Shown here piece after piece: positions 36,881 through 58,750 of a stretch of 64,000 bases of DNA. The position numbers were made by a program, and so were the translations under genes. The notes beneath the pieces were generated by a model. The model saw nothing but the letters and a program-made list of their open reading frames with translations, ran no database searches and had not been told where the DNA came from. The stretch is from a virus, in the IMG/VR virus record IMGVR_UViG_3300032224_000723, positions 32,001 through 96,000 of that record. The stretch is one strand, 5' to 3'. Within the stretch, counting starts at the first letter, position 1, and each line of letters opens with the position of its first letter.

Positions 36881-37572
36881 TGCCCAGGATACATGCTCCT
36901 CATTATGAGTATTGGATTCACAAAGGACATACATTTGGCCAATGTTTACATGGACCAGTTGGATCATCCGGATATTCTAATTACATACCAATACCTAAAT
37001 GTGGGAGCACCTGGGTTAATATCGTACTGTTTCATAGTTTAAATTGGCAAGTAGGTAACATCTATACAGATCCAGGTTTAGGTGAGCCTGGTGGGCTGGG
37101 GCTAAGCCACAATAGAAATTTAGTAGTATTGAGAGAACCTATTGAAAGATGGCTGTCAGGTATTGCTGAATACAGTTACAGATATCATGATCGAGATTTT
37201 ATAAACAATTTAAACAAACAAACATTAGATTTGATTTTTGATAGAGTAGCACTAGACGACCACACAGAAAAGCAAGTATACTACTGTCATGGATTACATC
37301 GATATCGGAGTTTATTTTTTCGTTGTGACTCGACATTAATTGAATTGTTTACGCAGTTCCTTACCAGTAACGGTGTAGACATAGATACCAGCAAAATACC
37401 GCCCGCTAATGTAACAGCAACAGATCAATATAAATTATCAATCAAAGAAACATTCCGTAATATCATAGAGAACGATATAAAATATAAAAACAAGTTAATA
37501 GATTATTTCAAAGCAGACTTTGATCTAATAGACAGCATAAATTTTTACCCACTAGACAATGAGAATAGATAA
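36880..37572 (+). CDS. Sulfotransferase family protein
   Basis: IPKCGST (5'-PSB), LREPIERWLS (3'-PB), H..Q, DF near C-terminus. Confidence 0.75.
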   Translation: MPRIHAPHYEYWIHKGHTFGQCLHGPVGSSGYSNYIPIPKCGSTWVNIVLFHSLNWQVGNIYTDPGLGEPGGLGLSHNRNLVVLREPIERWLSGIAEYSYRYHDRDFINNLNKQTLDLIFDRVALDDHTEKQVYYCHGLHRYRSLFFRCDSTLIELFTQFLTSNGVDIDTSKIPPANVTATDQYKLSIKETFRNIIENDIKYKNKLIDYFKADFDLIDSINFYPLDNENR

Positions 37573-39112
37573 CTTAACCAATAAACAAAGCGACTATGCA
37601 GTGTTCTTACCTGCACTAAGTAGCTTCTATGGCACTTACGTAGGCAAGCAACGACATGATCCTAATTTCATAGATAAAAACCGTATACCTGCAGACTTTG
37701 AAAACGGCATCGAAGGTATGAATTGGCTTAATGCAGATGCCGCATACTTTCCTTATAAGTGGACATTGTACAGTGCAGGGCATGCGAATCTAGATGTAAA
37801 CAAATTTGATGCCAAAGAAGATATGATTCGCAATCGCGACCCAAATACATTTATGTTGGGCGACAGCGGCGGATTTCAAATTGGTAAAGGTATATGGGAA
37901 GGCGATTGGAAGGATCCTAATTGTCCCAAGGCTGCTAAAAAACGAGCGCAAGTGCTGAGTTGGTTAGATGCATATTCAGATCGCGGAATGATCCTTGACA
38001 TTCCTGCGTGGGTCACACGCAGTCCTGCAGGCAGACGTGCTACTGGTATTACCACATATCAAGAAGCCGTAGATGCCACATACATCAACAATGAATACTT
38101 TATGAAGAATCGCACAGGTCGTTGCAAATTCTTAAATGTATTACAAGGCGACAATCATACTGATGCAGACGATTGGTATGACCGTATGAAGAAGTATTGT
38201 GATCCCAAACAGTATGCACAGCCTTTTGAAGGTTGGGCCATGGGAGGCCAAAATATGTGTGACATACATCTAGTGTTACGCAGACTAGTAGCACTACGTT
38301 TTGATGGATTGTTGGAATCTGGATTACATGATTGGATGCACTTTCTTGGTACAAGTAAATTAGAATGGGCTACATTGTTAACAGATATACAACGTGCAAT
38401 TCGCAAACATCACAATCCTACATTTACAATTAGCTTTGATTGTGCTAGCCCATTCCTTGCCACAGCCAATGGACAAATTTATTACGATGTGACCACTGAA
38501 GATAGAACTAAGTGGAGCTATCGTATGCAAGGTAGTGTAGATGATAAAAAATATGCCGCTGATACACGTAACTTTGGTGATGTATTGATGCAGGACAAAA
38601 TATTTGATTCGTTCTTACAAAGTCCTATTAGCGAGCGTATGCAAATCAAAGATGTTTGTGTGTACAAGCCTGGAGATCTAAATAAAATTGGTAAAGAAGG
38701 CAAAACATCATGGGATAGCTTTAGTTATGCATTGCAAATGGGCCATAATGTTTGGACACATATTCACGCAGTTCAGGAAGCAAATAGACAGTGTGATGCA
38801 GGTAAGTATCCAGAAATGTTAGTAGCAACAACTACAGACAAGAAAACATTCCGTCGTTACGATAGGAACTTTTTTAGAGATATTGTTGATGACATTTTTG
38901 CTACCAGTGACAGAGGCAAGGCTGAAGAACTAATTGAGCATTACAATAGATATTGGCTAAGTATTATTGGTACTCGAGGCGCAACAGGCAAAAAGACTTT
39001 TAACACCAGCACAGTGTTTAATGCATTGTTTGAACAAGATGCGCCCGAGGAACATCATATTGATGACAGCGGTTTAGATGAATCTAAATTAGACATTTTG
39101 GAGGCTGAATAA
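37559..39112 (+). CDS. TGT-fold DNA guanine transglycosylase (DpdA-like)
   Basis: DSGGFQ, ILDIP, VLQG, HFLG, SFD motifs; clustered with folE/queD/queE. Confidence 0.8.
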   Translation: MRIDNLTNKQSDYAVFLPALSSFYGTYVGKQRHDPNFIDKNRIPADFENGIEGMNWLNADAAYFPYKWTLYSAGHANLDVNKFDAKEDMIRNRDPNTFMLGDSGGFQIGKGIWEGDWKDPNCPKAAKKRAQVLSWLDAYSDRGMILDIPAWVTRSPAGRRATGITTYQEAVDATYINNEYFMKNRTGRCKFLNVLQGDNHTDADDWYDRMKKYCDPKQYAQPFEGWAMGGQNMCDIHLVLRRLVALRFDGLLESGLHDWMHFLGTSKLEWATLLTDIQRAIRKHHNPTFTISFDCASPFLATANGQIYYDVTTEDRTKWSYRMQGSVDDKKYAADTRNFGDVLMQDKIFDSFLQSPISERMQIKDVCVYKPGDLNKIGKEGKTSWDSFSYALQMGHNVWTHIHAVQEANRQCDAGKYPEMLVATTTDKKTFRRYDRNFFRDIVDDIFATSDRGKAEELIEHYNRYWLSIIGTRGATGKKTFNTSTVFNALFEQDAPEEHHIDDSGLDESKLDILEAE

Positions 39113-42288: not shown

Positions 42289-42817
42289 TACAAGTGGACG
42301 TCAACAAGTAGATTATTTTGTTGGCATTGAAGTAGAAAACACTGCAATGAAAGGCGAAAAGACTTTGTTTGTAGTAGGAGTTAAACCTGTAGACGAAATC
42401 ATTGAACTTGCAGAAAAACACGGTGTAAAACATTTATACTTCGGTACAAGCCAAAGTTTTCATCCACATAGTCCTTATGACTGGGCCGCATGGGATGACA
42501 TGATCAAACCTTTGTTGGTCAAAGACTATTGGGTTACACTGGACTTTGGTGTTGAATACTGTAAAGAAATTCACGAACAAGCATGGTGCGAATACAATAC
42601 GTTTATCCCCATGATCAGTGTTAAGATTCCTTACATTAAACTCTACAACTATAACGCCACAGTTAAAATTGATGACAACACTTGGGGCGACACTAATCCT
42701 GGTGTATGGTGCCACCCACTAAATGAACTACTGACCAGGAATGTATACACAGACTGGAAAGATTACACAGGAGATTTTCCTGTAACGCCAACACATAATG
42801 GAAGTGAAGAAGAATGA
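42278..42817 (+). CDS. Hypothetical protein in deazaguanine cluster
   Basis: ORF coupled to the DpdL-like gene. Confidence 0.6.
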   Translation: MAIDTSGRQQVDYFVGIEVENTAMKGEKTLFVVGVKPVDEIIELAEKHGVKHLYFGTSQSFHPHSPYDWAAWDDMIKPLLVKDYWVTLDFGVEYCKEIHEQAWCEYNTFIPMISVKIPYIKLYNYNATVKIDDNTWGDTNPGVWCHPLNELLTRNVYTDWKDYTGDFPVTPTHNGSEEE

Positions 42818-43248
42818 ATCAAGAACAAAGAGCAACTGTAGATAGAATTATGGAAGCAGCCGACCGTAAAATATGGGTACGTTTCCAAAAAGAAGGAATC
42901 CATAAATACCCAGCGGCACTAGAAGAAGCCCACTTAGCAGATGTTGCGTTCCTTGGTTATCCTCATCGTCATATTTTCCATTTCCGGGTGTGGATTGATG
43001 TGTTCCACAACGACCGGGACGTGGAGTTCATCCAATTCAAACGCTGGTGCGAATCGCTGTATAACGGTGACAATTCCGTTCTAGCATTGGACTACAAGTC
43101 TTGCGAAATGATTGCAGATGACTTGTATGTACAAATTGCTGCCAAATATCCAGAACGCACAGTATGGATCGAAGTCAGCGAAGACAGTGAAAATGGTGCG
43201 TTGATAAAATACGAATTAACAAAACCCTACAACTCAATCAAAATTTAA
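42814..43248 (+). CDS. QueD-like T-fold protein, DpdL-like (putative CDG decarboxylase)
   Basis: LGYPHRHIF matches the LxxxHRHxF signature; SCEMIA and VSED as in QueD fold. Confidence 0.7.
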   Translation: MNQEQRATVDRIMEAADRKIWVRFQKEGIHKYPAALEEAHLADVAFLGYPHRHIFHFRVWIDVFHNDRDVEFIQFKRWCESLYNGDNSVLALDYKSCEMIADDLYVQIAAKYPERTVWIEVSEDSENGALIKYELTKPYNSIKI

Positions 43249-43262
43249 TCAGGAGAATAATA

Positions 43263-43466
43263 ATGGGACAACCTAAATGGGTAGAAAAATATCTGCGTAT
43301 GAAGCCCGAAGTCAATCAAATTTTTAACGACTTAGAAGGCTACAAAGATTACTGTAGACTTAACATGTTGAAGTTTGACGAAAAGGATTTGTATCGCAGT
43401 GAACAATACCGCAAGTACGAAAAATATCGTAACTGGTTAAACCGTCAAGCAGAAGCACACAGATAA
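43263..43466 (+). CDS. Hypothetical protein
   Basis: AGGAG RBS, ORF. Confidence 0.65.
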   Translation: MGQPKWVEKYLRMKPEVNQIFNDLEGYKDYCRLNMLKFDEKDLYRSEQYRKYEKYRNWLNRQAEAHR

Positions 43467-44560
43467 TGGCTAAGATTTGGTTAGTTGATTTAGAAGCAGT
43501 TGAAACTAGGTACACGGCTCAGTGGAAAAGCCATGTGCCTAAACTTTTACAAAAGGCAGGTCATGATGTTCAAATTATCTCTGGTCCTACGGACATTCCT
43601 AGCGCCACTACTCCTGGCGCCTTTCTTAATTTTGGCGGCACTAATATATACAAGTCTAGCCAAGTTGAGCAAATGGGGCGTCTATTTTGTAGCGGATCCG
43701 TTCATGCTGGCGACCATTTTGTTTTTACTGACGCTTGGCATCCAGGCATTATAAACTTAAAGTACATGAGTGAGTTGCTGGGTATTCCAGTAACTACACA
43801 TGGTTTTTGGCATGCTGGCAGCTATGACCCACAAGACTTCCTTGGACGCTTAGTTGGTGATAAACCTTGGGTCAGACATGCAGAGAAAAGTTACTTCTGG
43901 GCATTTGATCACAACTACTTTGCCACAGAGTTCCACGTTAAACTATTCATTGACGAATTGCTTATGGATGGTTACAAAGAAGAAAATCCTTGGTACGAGG
44001 AAGATTACGCTGACCGCTACAAAAGTGGCAAGATGGTAAAAACAGGTTGGCCCATGGAGTATATGGATGATGTACTAACTCCATATAAAGGCATGACTAA
44101 ACGTGACCTTATTGTATTCCCACATCGCATTGCTCCAGAAAAACAAGTAGAGATTTTTAGAGACTTAAAAGAACAACTACCACAATATGAGTTTGTTGTT
44201 TGTCAGGATCAAGAGCTTACTAAAAATGAATATCATAACTTGCTAGGCGAGGCCAAGATTGTGTTTAGTTGTAGTCTACAAGAAACTTTAGGCATTGGAT
44301 GTTATGAGGGTGCGCTAGTAGACGCTATTCCCATGGTGCCCAATAGACTAAGCTATGAAGAAATGTATGAGCCACAATTTAAATATCCCAGTATGTGGAC
44401 TATAGATTGGGATCACTACTTAGGTAATAGAACTGCGTTGCGTGATCATATTGTTAAAACTATGAGCAACTACAAATCGCAATTATCTAAATTAAAAACT
44501 CAAACACAAAATTTAACCAACAACTTCTTCAGCGCAAATGAGTTCCTCAAACGCCTTTGA
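43466..44560 (+). CDS. GT-B fold (GT4-like) glycosyltransferase
   Basis: HRIAPEKQ, ETLGIGCYE (Ex7E), P...SYEE. Confidence 0.85.
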   Translation: MAKIWLVDLEAVETRYTAQWKSHVPKLLQKAGHDVQIISGPTDIPSATTPGAFLNFGGTNIYKSSQVEQMGRLFCSGSVHAGDHFVFTDAWHPGIINLKYMSELLGIPVTTHGFWHAGSYDPQDFLGRLVGDKPWVRHAEKSYFWAFDHNYFATEFHVKLFIDELLMDGYKEENPWYEEDYADRYKSGKMVKTGWPMEYMDDVLTPYKGMTKRDLIVFPHRIAPEKQVEIFRDLKEQLPQYEFVVCQDQELTKNEYHNLLGEAKIVFSCSLQETLGIGCYEGALVDAIPMVPNRLSYEEMYEPQFKYPSMWTIDWDHYLGNRTALRDHIVKTMSNYKSQLSKLKTQTQNLTNNFFSANEFLKRL

Positions 44561-45149
44561 TGTAATATTACAGTTTGAACAAGAACTAGCAGAGTTCACT
44601 GGAGCTCCGTATGCAATTATGACTGATTGTTGTACACACGCTATTGAACTGTGCATGAGACATGACCGTGTAGAGTTTTGTACATTCACTCCTTTTACAT
44701 ATCTAAGCATACCCATGCTCATGCACAAACTAGACATTGAGTATGCGTATGAAGAGGATGATCCTGCTCAATGGATCGGTGAGTATCGTTTTCTATCAAC
44801 TAGAATCTGGGATAGCGCACGTAGGCTAGAAAAGGATATGTATAAACAGGACCAGATACAATGTCTCAGCTTTGGACACGGCAAGCCTTTACAAATAGGT
44901 CGTGGTGGTGCTATACTATTAGATGACAAACAAGCGTATGAGGAAATAATTTTAATGCGTTATGATGGCCGCGACCTAAATAATATACCCTGGACAAAAC
45001 AACAAAAGTTTAAAGTTGGTTATCACTATAAACCCACTCCAGAGGAAGCGGAAGTCGGCATTAAACTATTGGAAGGTATTCGAGTTAATCAACCCAAACC
45101 CGAATATGTTGAATATGCAGACCTAAGACAAATTACTATTACGGATTAA
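44538..45149 (+). CDS. Short DegT/DnrJ/EryC1/StrS-like PLP aminotransferase
   Basis: FEQELAEFTG, CTHAIEL, DSA, SFGHGKPLQIGRGGAI, GYHYK. Confidence 0.78.
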   Translation: MSSSNAFDVILQFEQELAEFTGAPYAIMTDCCTHAIELCMRHDRVEFCTFTPFTYLSIPMLMHKLDIEYAYEEDDPAQWIGEYRFLSTRIWDSARRLEKDMYKQDQIQCLSFGHGKPLQIGRGGAILLDDKQAYEEIILMRYDGRDLNNIPWTKQQKFKVGYHYKPTPEEAEVGIKLLEGIRVNQPKPEYVEYADLRQITITD

Positions 45150-45150
45150 T

Positions 45151-45891
45151 ATGACAGAACCAGTATCAATAGATAACATAAACGACAAAGGTTATGAAAC
45201 AGGCTATTTAGGCGGCGCCATTCGTGCTAGAATGAAACGTGAAGGTAAACGTTTCTGGGCAGGCGACAACATTAGCGAATACGTCAAAGACGACTTTGAT
45301 AAAAACGAGCTTATTGAAGAAGCCACTCGAGCATTTGAAGGTGTGCTTGATGCATTACTTATTGATAGAGAAACAGATCCCAACAGCAAGGGCACAGCAC
45401 GCCGACTGGCCAAAATGTACTTTAACGAAATTATGGCAGGTAGATATGAACCAGCACCAGATGCAACAGCGTTTCCTAATGATAGTCAAGACCGTTATGA
45501 GGGTATGTTGGTGGTTAGGAGCGAGCTTCGCAGTATGTGTAGCCATCATCATCAGCCTGTGGCTGGTGTCGCTTATATTGGAATTATTGCCGCAAACAAG
45601 CTCATCGGATTGTCCAAGTACACACGTATTGCCCAATGGTGTGCTCGTAGAGGAACCCTACAGGAAGAACTGTGTAATGACATAGCCCGGGAAATTATGA
45701 AAGCCACAGACAGTGAAAGCGTTGGTGTTTATATTCAAGCAGTGCATGGTTGTTGCGAGAATCGAGGCATCATGGCACATAGTAGCTTAACACAAACTAC
45801 AGTACTAAAAGGTGCGTTTAACACTGACCCAGGTACGAAGAAGGAATTCTTCGACAACATCAAACTTCAACAAGATTTTGCACCACGTTAA
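45151..45891 (+). CDS. folE: GTP cyclohydrolase I
   Basis: SMCSHHHQP, IGLSK, QEEL, HGC..RG. Confidence 0.95.
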   Translation: MTEPVSIDNINDKGYETGYLGGAIRARMKREGKRFWAGDNISEYVKDDFDKNELIEEATRAFEGVLDALLIDRETDPNSKGTARRLAKMYFNEIMAGRYEPAPDATAFPNDSQDRYEGMLVVRSELRSMCSHHHQPVAGVAYIGIIAANKLIGLSKYTRIAQWCARRGTLQEELCNDIAREIMKATDSESVGVYIQAVHGCCENRGIMAHSSLTQTTVLKGAFNTDPGTKKEFFDNIKLQQDFAPR

Positions 45892-49371: not shown

Positions 49372-49821
49372 ATGTTACTTAACCTTTTAGATAAACTGGG
49401 CCGTCGACGTATTGTCATGGACCGAGTCAACAATGAACCGTATTTGGAACGTTACTACGTGTTCTTGAAAGATCGTACTTGGTTTCCATTTAATGTATTC
49501 ATACACAAGTTTCTTAAAAGTGATCCCGACGATGTACACGATCATCCTTGGCCCTACGCTACACTTATCTTAAAAGGCGGATATTGGGAATGGATTCCAC
49601 AGTTTAACAGTCTTGGACAGAAGGTCGGTGAAATAGCAACATGGCGTGGCGCTGGTCACTTTCGTATTTGTAAAGCCAATAGTTTTCATCGTATCGAACT
49701 TGATCCCAATGTAACTGCATGGACATTGTTTATGCCAGGTATTAAACAACGTGAATGGGGCTTTTTAAGTAAAGGCCGTTGGATACAGTGGCAAAAATAT
49801 TTGGAGCTTAGAACAAAATGA
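49372..49821 (+). CDS. Cupin-like phage protein
   Basis: HDHPW...GGYWE...HRIEL motif. Confidence 0.65.
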   Translation: MLLNLLDKLGRRRIVMDRVNNEPYLERYYVFLKDRTWFPFNVFIHKFLKSDPDDVHDHPWPYATLILKGGYWEWIPQFNSLGQKVGEIATWRGAGHFRICKANSFHRIELDPNVTAWTLFMPGIKQREWGFLSKGRWIQWQKYLELRTK

Positions 49822-50159
49822 TTCAATTACCTCTAGGATGTACTGTTGTCTACGGCATTCGCATAGACATCGACAATTTATCAGCTGACATCATTGACTG
49901 GTATAAAACTGTTGGTGGTGTTATAACTGAAAGCAAACACTACAACCGTAGAGGTAACGAACACGTAACGACTTATGTACAATATGGTAAGTCAAAGAAA
50001 TGCCATTATCATCACAATGGTGGATCCAACGCTGTCAGACTTCATTTCCTCGGCGAGGATGCCAGTGTTGCTAGTATGTTCTTATTAAAGTTTATGGAAC
50101 ATGTAACTGATCACAATCTTAAGGAAGTAATGCACAGGATTGAGTACGATAAATACTAG
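49818..50159 (+). CDS. Hypothetical phage protein
   Basis: ORF with ATGA overlap. Confidence 0.6.
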   Translation: MIQLPLGCTVVYGIRIDIDNLSADIIDWYKTVGGVITESKHYNRRGNEHVTTYVQYGKSKKCHYHHNGGSNAVRLHFLGEDASVASMFLLKFMEHVTDHNLKEVMHRIEYDKY

Positions 50160-50167
50160 TTCAATCC

Positions 50168-50231
50168 AGCGGCCTCTGAGCATCATCCCGCTATACAAAT
50201 TCTGCTGCCTATGCTATAATTAACATAGGAG
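50168..50231 (+). ncRNA. Candidate preQ1-I-like riboswitch variant plus SD-masking hairpin in queD leader
   Basis: P1 AGCGG/CCGCT, loop ending CATC, ATACAAA tail, AGCA/TGCT pseudoknot option; CCTATG/CATAGG hairpin over AGGAG. Confidence 0.45.
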
Positions 50232-50237
50232 AAAAGC

Positions 50238-50741
50238 ATGTCACTACAACCCGTATTATACAAATACACCAGCACTAAAGAATACCACGACGCATTTCCT
50301 TGCGCTTATCGTCAATGGCGAGCAGACAGTCATTGTAATTTGATACATGGCTATTCGTTTAGTATGAAATTTTACTTTGGTACAAATGATTTAGATGTTC
50401 GTAACTGGGCCGGCGACTATGGTGGACTTAAAGAACTTAAGAAGATACTGGAAGATCAATTTGACCATACATTGATTGTTGCACAAGATGATCCAGAGCT
50501 GGAGACATTTAAGTTGTTGCAAGAAAAGAACATGGCCAAGATTGTGGTACTGCCCAAACTAGGTTGCGAAGGACTTGCGGATCAACTCTACAAGTTTGTA
50601 AACGGTGTTTACATTCCTGACAACTGGGGTCCGGGCGAAGCAGAACGCTTATGGTGCTATCGTGTTGAGGTACGTGAGACACAGGCTAATATGGCATTCC
50701 GTGAAGGCCATCGTGAATGGAATGAGGACTTGTTTGCATGA
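50238..50741 (+). CDS. queD: 6-carboxy-5,6,7,8-tetrahydropterin synthase
   Basis: HCNLIHGY, DYGGLK, FDHT, CEGLA, VRET. Confidence 0.85.
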   Translation: MSLQPVLYKYTSTKEYHDAFPCAYRQWRADSHCNLIHGYSFSMKFYFGTNDLDVRNWAGDYGGLKELKKILEDQFDHTLIVAQDDPELETFKLLQEKNMAKIVVLPKLGCEGLADQLYKFVNGVYIPDNWGPGEAERLWCYRVEVRETQANMAFREGHREWNEDLFA

Positions 50742-51098: not shown

Positions 51099-51367
51099 AT
51101 TCAAAAATAGAAGAAGCATTAGGTATACTGCAAGAAGAATGTGCAGAAGTTATTGTAGAAGTCAGCAAGTGCCGTAGGTTTGGTATTGACAGCGTACACT
51201 ACAAAACTGGCATCGAACACTCCAAAATGCTTGAGTTGGAAGTAGGAGATGTGTTAGCATTAATAGATATTCTTGTTGAGCAAGGCGTTTTAAATACAGC
51301 AGTATTAGACATTGCCAAAGCAAACAAAAAAGAAAAACTTAAACAGTGGTCAAAAATTTATGAGTAA
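51095..51367 (+). CDS. MazG-like NTP pyrophosphohydrolase
   Basis: QEECAEV...ELEVGDV acidic motif. Confidence 0.75.
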   Translation: MNSKIEEALGILQEECAEVIVEVSKCRRFGIDSVHYKTGIEHSKMLELEVGDVLALIDILVEQGVLNTAVLDIAKANKKEKLKQWSKIYE

Positions 51368-52217
51368 ACTTAAAATATCAGAATTGTTTTACAGCGCACA
51401 AGGCGAAGGTCGCTTTGTTGGTGTTCCCAGTGTGTTTCTACGCACGTACGGATGTAACTTTAAATGTGCAGGCTTTGGCTGCAAGCCCGGCGAACTCAGC
51501 ACAGAAGCAGATGAAGTAGCAAAGAACATTCATTTGTATAAAACATTTGAAGAACTACCTTTGGTCAATACCGGCTGTGACAGCTATGCTAGTTGGCATC
51601 CTGCATTTAAAGATCTAAGTCACACATATGACATTGATGAGATTGTTGTAAAAATGTTGGCCTTAACTCCCAATGGACGTTGGGTACAAAACAACGGCAA
51701 CGATGTACACTTAGTTATCACAGGTGGCGAACCTTTGCTAGGTTGGCAACGCAGTTATGAAGAACTACTAAGTCATCCCGGACTTGAAGATATTCGTAAC
51801 ATTACATTTGAAACTAATGGTACACAACCACTCAGTGACAAATTCAAAGCATTCTTAGATGAATGGTATACTCCTGATAAAGAAATCACATTCAGTGTGA
51901 GTCCCAAGTTAATTGCCAGCGGTGAGATGTGGAATGATGCTATCAAGCCAGAAGTTGTAATTGACTATCAAAGATATGGTCATACTTACTTGAAGTTTGT
52001 AGTAGAACATGCGGCACATTTTGATGAGGTAGACAATGCTGTGCGTGAATATAGACGTGCAGGATTTGAAATGACTGTGTTTGTTATGCCGCAAGGTGGT
52101 GTTGTAACTCCTTATGAAAAAAATCGTGTTAATGTTGCTAACTGGGCATTGGCCAGAGGTTATAACTATAGTCCACGGCTACACGTCGACTTGTGGGGCA
52201 ATGGCTGGGGTAAGTAA
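51360..52217 (+). CDS. queE: 7-carboxy-7-deazaguanine synthase (radical SAM)
   Basis: ELFYSAQGEG, GCNFKC...GCDS, ITGGEP, ETNGT, SPK, PRLH. Confidence 0.92.
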   Translation: MSKLKISELFYSAQGEGRFVGVPSVFLRTYGCNFKCAGFGCKPGELSTEADEVAKNIHLYKTFEELPLVNTGCDSYASWHPAFKDLSHTYDIDEIVVKMLALTPNGRWVQNNGNDVHLVITGGEPLLGWQRSYEELLSHPGLEDIRNITFETNGTQPLSDKFKAFLDEWYTPDKEITFSVSPKLIASGEMWNDAIKPEVVIDYQRYGHTYLKFVVEHAAHFDEVDNAVREYRRAGFEMTVFVMPQGGVVTPYEKNRVNVANWALARGYNYSPRLHVDLWGNGWGK

Positions 52218-57276: not shown

Positions 57277-57564
57277 ATGAGCAGACCTAAACCAAAAGTG
57301 TTAGTAGAACACGTTAACAAAACAAACTATAAGACAGAACAAGTCTTGAGTAGCGAAGGTATATGGGCTGTATTTTACGATAATCAACCTGTTAATTTAA
57401 AGTCCAGCAACATGCTGGTCAGCTATCCTGGTCCTAAGTATAAGAAAACTAGTTTTAGCAATCCAGGTCATGCTATCAATTTAGCCAAGAAGCTCAATAC
57501 CCTATTCAAGACTGATTTGTTTACTGTGGTGTTATTGAAAAGTGGCGACAGAATCTACCCCTAA
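57277..57564 (+). CDS. Hypothetical phage protein
   Basis: Double TAAATA (57244, 57253) upstream. Confidence 0.7.
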   Translation: MSRPKPKVLVEHVNKTNYKTEQVLSSEGIWAVFYDNQPVNLKSSNMLVSYPGPKYKKTSFSNPGHAINLAKKLNTLFKTDLFTVVLLKSGDRIYP

Positions 57565-58750
57565 TCGTTCCCCTACTTACTGTGTGATGCCACACATAAA
57601 TCTTGCCATGCAAAACAATGGTGATGTATGTGTGTGCAATAAGAACACTGAAAGTTTCAAAGACGGTAAACATAATTTACTCCATATTCACAAAGACGGC
57701 CTTGCTAAAATATGGAACAGCCACACTAGAAAAATGATAGCCGCAGGTTTGGATCACGGCAAACGTTTACCTGGGTGTCAAGCATGCTGGAATGACGAAG
57801 ATGCTGGCGTTGAGTCCAATAGACAAAGGTTCAACAAAGTATTTGCCGATGTTAAACCTAGTAAAGCACAACCTAAAGTTTTAATTATTAAACCAGGCAA
57901 TGTGTGTAATTTAGGTTGTAGGATGTGCAATCCAGCAACTAGTACAAGTATGTATCAAGACTTTTATAAATTAGACACTGATAGAAAATCATTTTCTGGT
58001 ACATTAAAAGATTACACAAATCAATTTGAACTTATACGAGAAGGCTTTAGTAAAGACAATAACTTGGTGTGGCCTGTTCTTAAAGAATGGACCAACGAAC
58101 TAATATTCATTGACATCTACGGCGGAGAGCCTATGTTGGCTCCCACCATATGGGAAGTGTTGGAACACAGTGTTCAAAATGGCTCCAGCAAAAACACAAG
58201 TATAGAATTTCATACCAATTGTACAATATGGAATGAAAAATACATCAACCTATTACCAGCATTTAAATCTGTTGACATAGGCATCAGCATAGATCATCAT
58301 GAACATAAACAGTTATCATATATTCGTCATGGCGTTGATGCAGAAACACTACTTACTAATTTAGAGAAGTATAAGCAGTTAGAACTAGAAAACTCCTCTA
58401 TTAATCTTCATATCACATTAACAGTAACTCCCTATAATGTTTGGGATTTAGATTTAATAGTTGATGAATTAGAAGCACACATGCCGGTGGCTATCAATGT
58501 TGTATATCTACCAGAACTATTAGACATACGGCACTTACCTATTCCTATCAAACAAAAATTAATTTCAAAATTTGAATCCAATCACAAATTAACAAAAATA
58601 GTACAGTTACTCAATCATACTATTCCTGGGTGTGATGTATATTGGCCTAAGTTTTGTGAAGAATTCCGTATACTAGATAAAATACGCAATCAAAGTTTTG
58701 CAGAGTGTTTTCCAGAATACTACAAAGAATTAGAACCTTATATTGTTTAA
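57542..58750 (+). CDS. Radical SAM protein with N-terminal SPASM/twitch domain
   Basis: CNLGCRMC, GGEP; N-terminal CVMP..CVC...CQAC. Confidence 0.85.
   Translation: MATESTPNRSPTYCVMPHINLAMQNNGDVCVCNKNTESFKDGKHNLLHIHKDGLAKIWNSHTRKMIAAGLDHGKRLPGCQACWNDEDAGVESNRQRFNKVFADVKPSKAQPKVLIIKPGNVCNLGCRMCNPATSTSMYQDFYKLDTDRKSFSGTLKDYTNQFELIREGFSKDNNLVWPVLKEWTNELIFIDIYGGEPMLAPTIWEVLEHSVQNGSSKNTSIEFHTNCTIWNEKYINLLPAFKSVDIGISIDHHEHKQLSYIRHGVDAETLLTNLEKYKQLELENSSINLHITLTVTPYNVWDLDLIVDELEAHMPVAINVVYLPELLDIRHLPIPIKQKLISKFESNHKLTKIVQLLNHTIPGCDVYWPKFCEEFRILDKIRNQSFAECFPEYYKELEPYIV

Follow-up and report, generated by a model that had tools for sequence, protein, structure and literature searches.

Riboswitches of the preQ1 class I (preQ1-I) fold into an H-type pseudoknot, with a specificity cytosine adjoining helix P1, a G-C floor, U6 in loop L1, and A30 in loop L3; in type I of this class, UC precedes the 3' strand of P1, UU follows its 5' strand, and a C in the tail is conserved (PMC11625349). 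Among phages that carry 7-deazaguanine in their DNA, QueC-less ones have been linked to the CDG decarboxylase DpdL, for which Cui et al. proposed the signature LxxxHRHxF; riboswitches are unmentioned in that study of phage 7-deazaguanine (PMC10516641). Our search of the literature found no paper joining a riboswitch and dpdA, and Rfam 15 contains no family matching the element described here. Leader pseudoknots are also familiar from phage biology, with gene 32 of phage T4 being controlled by such a structure.

The stretch of DNA that we analyzed (hereinafter, the window; 64,000 nucleotides) comprises bases 32001-96000 of a 157-kb IMG/VR record that is estimated to be 45% complete. Within it, a 78-nt gap separates an uncharacterized open reading frame (ORF; 49818-50159, with the stop codon at 50157-50159) from a gene for a 167-aa QueD-like T-fold protein (50238-50741; Pfam PTPS, 2e-13; phrog_2389, QueD-like, 4e-35), hereinafter queD; this gene and all the leader features described below are on the + strand. 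The start codon of queD (ATG, 50238-50240) follows a Shine-Dalgarno (SD) sequence (AGGAG, 50227-50231) with a 6-nt spacer. The original prediction placed a variant preQ1-I aptamer in the segment 50150-50240, and the elements from which it was assembled, namely, TAAATA (50150-50155, overlapping the end of the upstream ORF), AGCGG, CCGCT, C50187, and a hairpin over the SD, are all found there. The AGCGG segment (50168-50172) is the 5' strand of P1 and pairs with CCGCT (50188-50192), enclosing a 15-nt loop (50173-50187) that ends with C50187. Further downstream, the CCTATG/CATAGG hairpin (50208-50213 with 50224-50229) masks the first three bases of the SD.

The TAAATA hexamer is part of an ATAAATA box (50149-50155), a candidate T4-late-like promoter from which transcription would begin a few bases ahead of P1. 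The window contains 9 copies of ATAAATA, all on the + (coding) strand (at 15, 8951, 13619, 20298, 27263, 42902, 50149, 57243, and 57252), compared with 22 ± 4 expected. Most of these copies are located about 25 nt before an ATG, and the sequence looks like the late-promoter box of this phage. Of 146 relatives, 129 have a TAAATA/TAAGTA or TATAAT-like box no more than 30 nt ahead of P1, most often at a distance of 5-11 nt; because the box is positioned shortly before P1, the aptamer probably begins the transcript. The queD leader is about 60 nt longer than the leaders of the neighboring genes.

A QueD-based search of viral contigs yielded more than 590 relatives, and a P1-agnostic 16-base pattern retrieved at least 119 further stretches. 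The combined set includes at least 154 true leader instances with at least 115 distinct aptamers, all from uncultured phages; these sequences share ancestry, so that the leader counts reported here represent non-independent events. The 115 distinct sequences were aligned with MAFFT (alignment A1, 55 columns). The leader aligns base for base across contigs although the upstream genes vary. Among the 190 listed pattern matches behind which more than 200 nt of sequence is available, queD follows in 177, and the QueD proteins encoded behind the listed matches show 32-100% identity to the QueD of the window; the other 13 are mostly chance hits inside genes, without P1. Given the conservation before queD, the varied upstream genes, and the compensatory changes detailed below, the leader element is far beyond chance. 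Two of these 13 matches (L138:4432-5163 and L176:4922-5803) have the full motif, but queD is separated from the pseudoknot by an extra ORF, encoding 243 or 293 aa without a Pfam match, which looks like a mobile gene that entered downstream of the switch.

The motif has been found so far only in uncultured phages. When 596 Gb of genomes was scanned for a bacterial origin, all 120 exact-pattern matches listed were devoid of P1 and the loop features and look like chance occurrences. A blastn search against 50,697 GenBank phages produced chance hits only, and a covariance model built from the motif found no match before the queD genes of the cultured phages ACP17, X1, Phosso, Motura, and RHEph04.

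The queD leader encodes an H-type RNA pseudoknot. Across the 115 distinct sequences, P1 is 99.5% paired and occurs in six distinct fully paired versions; three of its pairs covary (A-U/U-A, G-C/C-G/U-A, and C-G/A-U/U-A), whereas both pairs at the top are invariably G-C (115/115). The second helix, P2, was traced by mutual information between loop and tail columns. It starts with the pairing of the base 5' of an invariant UCAUC with the base 3' of an invariant UCUGC and extends outward from there, joining a 5' strand at 50178-50185 to a 3' strand at 50203-50210. In the window, the pairs are G50178-U50210, G50180-C50208, C50181-G50207, A50182-U50206, C50184-G50204, and A50185-U50203; A50179 and C50209 are mismatched in this phage, and the U50183/C50205 mismatch is invariant throughout the motif family. 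In A1, P2 is 85.6% paired, and six of its seven pairs covary, as exemplified by the column pair 25-49 (UA, 52; AU, 22; CG, 10; GC, 10; GU, 3). Altogether, 91.4% of the A1 cells are paired, and nine pairs changed on both sides. The covariation score is 0.340, compared with 0.113 in shuffles, none of which (0/500) reaches it, and drops to 0.03-0.08 when the partners are slid by 1-3 columns. The alignment of queD leaders thus bears out P1 as initially drawn, with three covarying pairs, and also reveals covariation in P2, but in a register other than the one proposed: the suggested pairing of AGCA (50179-50182) with TGCT (50203-50206) is found in only 41.5% of the family cells and is 3 nt out of register, the covariation being located 3 nt further 3'.

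Two other candidate helices were rejected: an inner GCC/GGC hairpin in the P1 loop, where the base that follows the P1 5' strand changes freely with no compensating substitution, and a helix between the P1 5' strand and 50202-50207 that appears in the single-sequence minimum free energy fold, where G50204 is invariant while the P1 base changes. The single-sequence fold of the leader is no better than those of shuffles (z = -0.71).

The same segment contains a sigma-70-like site, TATACA-N17-TATAAT (50192-50220), with 10/12 matches and a TG before the -10 box (extended -10); the -10 box falls within the SD hairpin loop. One might argue that the leader is conserved due to DNA signals, either this promoter or an operator, rather than RNA structure, and apart from the quality of the site itself, TATAAT-like loops are common in group 1 of the expression platforms discussed below. 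This explanation is extremely improbable because the compensatory changes keep the pairing intact and because G-U pairs, which are frequent, are confined to the + strand, as expected if + strand RNA, not DNA, is under selection; moreover, the -10 box is retained only in platform group 1 and is missing from the other groups. Hence the original caveat that the promoter might explain part of the sequence was correct in that the site is real, but not as an account of the conservation. A possible role of the sigma-70-like site is that of a second promoter that would bypass the aptamer and produce an unregulated queD transcript early in infection.

In L1 of the pseudoknot (50173-50177), the length of which differs among relatives, the first base is variable (C in 71, U in 46, and A in 37 of the 154 instances), the second is C in 153/154, and the third is U in 154/154. 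The P2/P1 junction is formed by L2, that is, U50186 (U in 143/154) and C50187, which was assigned to the specificity position at the outset and is C in 154/154. The 10-nt L3 (50193-50202) is invariant at seven positions (2, 3, 5-7, 9, and 10), including three A residues, and ends with an invariant U-C, not A. Position 4 of L3 (C50196) co-varies with the third P1 pair: all 8 aptamers with A-U or U-A at that pair have A at this position, and 103 of the 107 with C-G have C or U, as would be the case if L3 read the P1 minor groove, where it presumably lies. The near-invariant unpaired bases at the junction appear pocket-like, resembling a ligand-binding site.

The similarity to type I preQ1-I riboswitches (RF00522; for example, in Carnobacterium antarcticum) extends to the small H-type pseudoknot with a 5-bp P1 and a conserved G-C closing pair, UC directly 5' of the second P1 strand, a conserved C as the last base of the tail loop, the presence of adenines in L3, and the placement ahead of a 7-deazaguanine pathway gene. 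There are also differences. The phage L1 reads N-C-U, not U-U, and the uridine directly after the P1 5' strand, U6, by which class I recognizes N9 of preQ1, is replaced by C or A in most of the 154 instances; the departure of the loop from the conserved U(U) was pointed out in the original prediction for the window. The preQ1-I P2 consists of 3-4 pairs, whereas the phage P2 comprises 7 pairs and the invariant U-C mismatch; the phage L2 is only 2 nt long, and L3 is 10 nt long and ends with UC. In preQ1-I, the switch turns expression OFF by burial of the SD in P2 or by a terminator; in the phage motif, the SD is located about 17 nt downstream of P2, and the switch is predicted to be ON, with no terminator. 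Types II and III of preQ1-I (B. subtilis queC, T. tengcongensis, E. coli) are similar to the phage motif in fold class, in the specificity C adjoining P1, and possibly in an A-rich L3 lying in the P1 minor groove, and relatives of the AGAGG type share P1 and the start of L3 with them; types II and III are distinguished by AC before the P1 3' strand, a terminator or SD burial in P2 (OFF), and bacterial origin.

Scanning the window with all 4227 Rfam models at the gathering score produced no match to the leader, and none was obtained for the region 49900-50500 at E<=10, including RF00522, RF01054, and RF02680. Ten relatives and L019, the most preQ1-like one, yielded no Rfam hit at this threshold either, so that the relaxed-threshold search with the preQ1 model, suggested as a check of the aptamer assignment, came out negative (no RF00522 hit at E<=10) even for the relative that most resembles preQ1-I. 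Because the motif lacks the L1 uridine and a match to the Rfam model, has a longer P2 and L3, and follows the opposite predicted logic, it is not classed as a member of preQ1-I; we treat it as an RNA that works like a preQ1-I aptamer without belonging to that family. A general trait of riboswitches is apparent, namely, a conserved 5'-leader aptamer combined with variable platforms that share one aptamer strand.

In the window, the 3' strand of P2 (50203-50210) overlaps the SD-sequestering hairpin by 3 nt, and the two structures are mutually exclusive. In the knot-free fold, the first four bases of this strand pair with 50235-50238 at the start codon. Other relatives rely on different helices: pairing of this strand with an AUG-GCA region, a GCCAUUG-type arm covering the AUG, a UGUCU-type arm covering the 3' half of the SD, or a CUCUAUU-type arm. 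Counting the hairpin of the window, there are thus at least five platform designs in which the P2 3' strand doubles as anti-SD/anti-AUG strand, and every sequestering helix in them overlaps it. For the window, the predicted probability that the SD is unpaired is 0.28 without the knot and 0.73 with the knot. We also compared the predicted cost of opening the ribosome-binding site (RBS) with P1 and the loops held fixed and with the P2 3' strand additionally blocked: blocking lowers the mean cost for the SD-to-AUG region from 7.8 to 4.3 kcal/mol, with a decrease in 142/148 leaders (from 8.1 to 3.0 kcal/mol in the window), compared with 5.9 kcal/mol in the control with a shuffled 8-nt P2 3' strand. 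The P2 duplex (about -4.3 kcal/mol) and the sequestration gain (about -4.9 kcal/mol) are nearly equal in energy, so that the two states appear to be balanced, as a switch requires. No terminator was detected in the leader.

Since the P2 3' strand is the anti-RBS strand, formation of the knot is predicted to free the ribosome site and thus turn queD translation ON, a direction that rests on nearest-neighbor folding, which cannot model the pseudoknot itself. This prediction runs counter to the repressive feedback control that was originally envisaged, given that the folded aptamer should open the RBS. A comparable arrangement exists in the add adenine riboswitch of Vibrio vulnificus, where the 3' strand of a ligand-stabilized helix otherwise pairs with the RBS, although the add aptamer is an unrelated three-way junction. 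The platform evidence also bears on the simpler notion that the pseudoknot is a constitutive structural element that does not switch, such as an mRNA stabilizer, a standby site, or a thermometer. Pseudoknots at mRNA 5' ends can indeed protect against decay; however, such a function would leave unexplained at least 10 invariant unpaired bases, the repeated emergence of new sequestering helices overlapping P2, and the near-equal energies of the two states, and we regard it as improbable.

The interpretation that we favor, with moderate confidence, is that the leader controls queD in cis as an RNA switch, most probably a metabolite-binding riboswitch in which a ligand-stabilized knot turns queD translation ON. 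The data establish the pseudoknot, its covariation, its link to queD alone, and the overlap of P2 with the sequestering helices; ligand binding, the identity of the ligand, and the direction of the switch are what we infer. The leader would be transcribed from the late-type promoter located just upstream, and the segment 50168-50210 would fold as an H-type pseudoknot with a 5-bp P1, a 7-pair P2 containing the invariant U-C mismatch, and U50186-C50187 at the junction. As in the class I preQ1 aptamers, C50187 would form a base pair with a planar, guanine-like ligand that is stacked between P1 and P2. When the knot is not formed, the P2 3' strand would pair with the SD and the start-codon region; by stabilizing the knot, the ligand would release the RBS and allow translation of queD. 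Two points call for caution: ON switches are uncommon for biosynthetic genes, and the internal sigma-70-like site could yield aptamer-free transcripts. The aptamer reading of the original prediction is thereby retained in its core, considering the covarying H-type pseudoknot, the two invariant G-C pairs of P1, the invariant C, and the link to queD, and is amended with respect to membership in the Rfam preQ1 family, the register of P2, and repression.

Structure and RBS competition would suit a protein-driven switch equally well, and the pseudoknot could then be an operator for a protein, either a phage translational repressor or activator or, in the style of gene 32, the gene product itself, with no sensing of small molecules. 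The phage is T4-like, and the gene 32 leader offers a precedent: it is likewise an H-type pseudoknot at the 5' end of an mRNA of a T4-like phage and acts in translational control. The gene 32 knot, however, nucleates the binding of the single-strand-binding protein that the gene itself encodes, whereas the gene behind the phage motif codes for a metabolic enzyme, and the conserved bases of the motif are located at a ligand-pocket-like junction. RNA binding is not known for QueD, a small T-fold enzyme. Furthermore, the motif tracks queD across QueD proteins that are 32-60% identical and across different promoters and platforms. The covariance model, when run on this record and on five large relatives, including two of 353-354 kb with 98-100% completeness, found one copy in each, always before queD and never before another gene; a second match in one of the large relatives reached only E ~1. 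The link to queD is thus exclusive, and together with the clustering of the invariant bases at the helix junction, a preQ1-I pattern (PMC11625349), it renders a protein operator unlikely.

We now return to the metabolite-binding riboswitch and to the question of which ligand the gene content of these phages suggests. The record encodes folE (45151-45891), queD, and a queE-like gene (51312-52217), and no Pfam match to QueC, QueF, or TGT was found in its 157 kb, which extends to the entire record the earlier observation that the window lacks a preQ1-synthesis gene. The two complete relatives have no TGT and no convincing QueC. A second T-fold protein (42814-43248) contains the sequence LGYPHRHIF, which conforms to the LxxxHRHxF signature of DpdL, and matches PHROG 17812, a family of unknown function (3e-36); proteins with this DpdL-like signature recur in 4/5 large relatives and in 17 motif-bearing loci. 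A ligand other than preQ1, as allowed for in the original prediction, is a reasonable expectation for a phage that has a DpdL-like protein and is without QueC or QueF.

The gene content differs in one subclade. In at least 13 motif contigs (L119, L348, L349, L351-L359, and L361), bimodular QueF and QueC are encoded upstream of queD, and a dCTP-deaminase-like gene and one uncharacterized ORF separate them from the motif; in L119 (292-3903), the Pfam scores for QueF and QueC are 1e-30 and 3e-52, respectively. No DpdL hit was obtained in these contigs, and their aptamers retain every invariant base. Judging from these genes, one aptamer serves two end products, in DpdL-type QueC-less phages and in QueF+QueC+ phages, the latter having a preQ1-type pathway.

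The presence of QueC and QueF in one subclade of carriers is compatible with a true, even if divergent, class I preQ1 riboswitch that would bind preQ1 or preQ0 and repress queD, and so are the two top G-C pairs, the UC before the P1 3' strand, the A-containing L3, and the que context. This possibility appears rather unlikely, given that the motif has no RF00522 match at E<=10 and no conserved L1 uridine, that the phage and its complete relatives lack Pfam matches to QueC, QueF, and TGT and have a DpdL-like protein instead, and that, with the SD outside P2 and no terminator, the platform predicts RBS release. For the ON riboswitch that we favor, the occurrence of the same aptamer along both routes argues for a shared ligand or for indifference to the C7 substituent. 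Possible ligands are a 7-deazaguanine base, guanine, and an intermediate common to the pathways.

We tentatively propose, as one possible elaboration that we hold with limited confidence, that these leaders represent a new, phage-only class that senses a base common to all 7-deazaguanine DNA-modification routes and switches ON QueD, the first committed enzyme. The aptamer being present in both DpdL-type QueC-less and QueF+QueC+ phages fits such a shared ligand, the candidates being guanine released from DNA in the exchange catalyzed by DpdA and a shared intermediate such as CDG. If correct, shared-base sensing would amount to demand-driven, feed-forward control of DNA hypermodification. Should ligand binding be confirmed, the motif would be a riboswitch class so far confined to phages that controls the rewriting of DNA bases against host restriction, with a preQ1-I-like fold that activates rather than represses. 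Such a switch would also be a natural ON-switch scaffold of small size (about 45 nt), could reveal which 7-deazapurine or purine builds up in infected cells, and would provide an experimental handle on the timing of DNA hypermodification in giant phages.

We also noted other genes in this part of the window. A 517-aa protein (37559-39112) was considered as a potential DpdA-like enzyme, an identity that sequence comparison did not confirm (no Pfam TGT, PHROG, or PDB match); its homologs in PA5oct-like jumbo phages are annotated as hypothetical, and the sole support is a feature-based Atlas lead (0.94) to clusters in which 17% of the members contain TGT. The region 57542-58750, a few kilobases beyond the deazaguanine genes, encodes a radical SAM protein with a twitch domain (NCBIfam NF033640, 4.5e-76). 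Just before folE, there are a short DegT/DnrJ-type aminotransferase fragment (44538-45149; Pfam, 5e-14) and a weakly glycosyltransferase-like ORF (43466-44560), a hint of sugar tailoring beside the base-modification genes.
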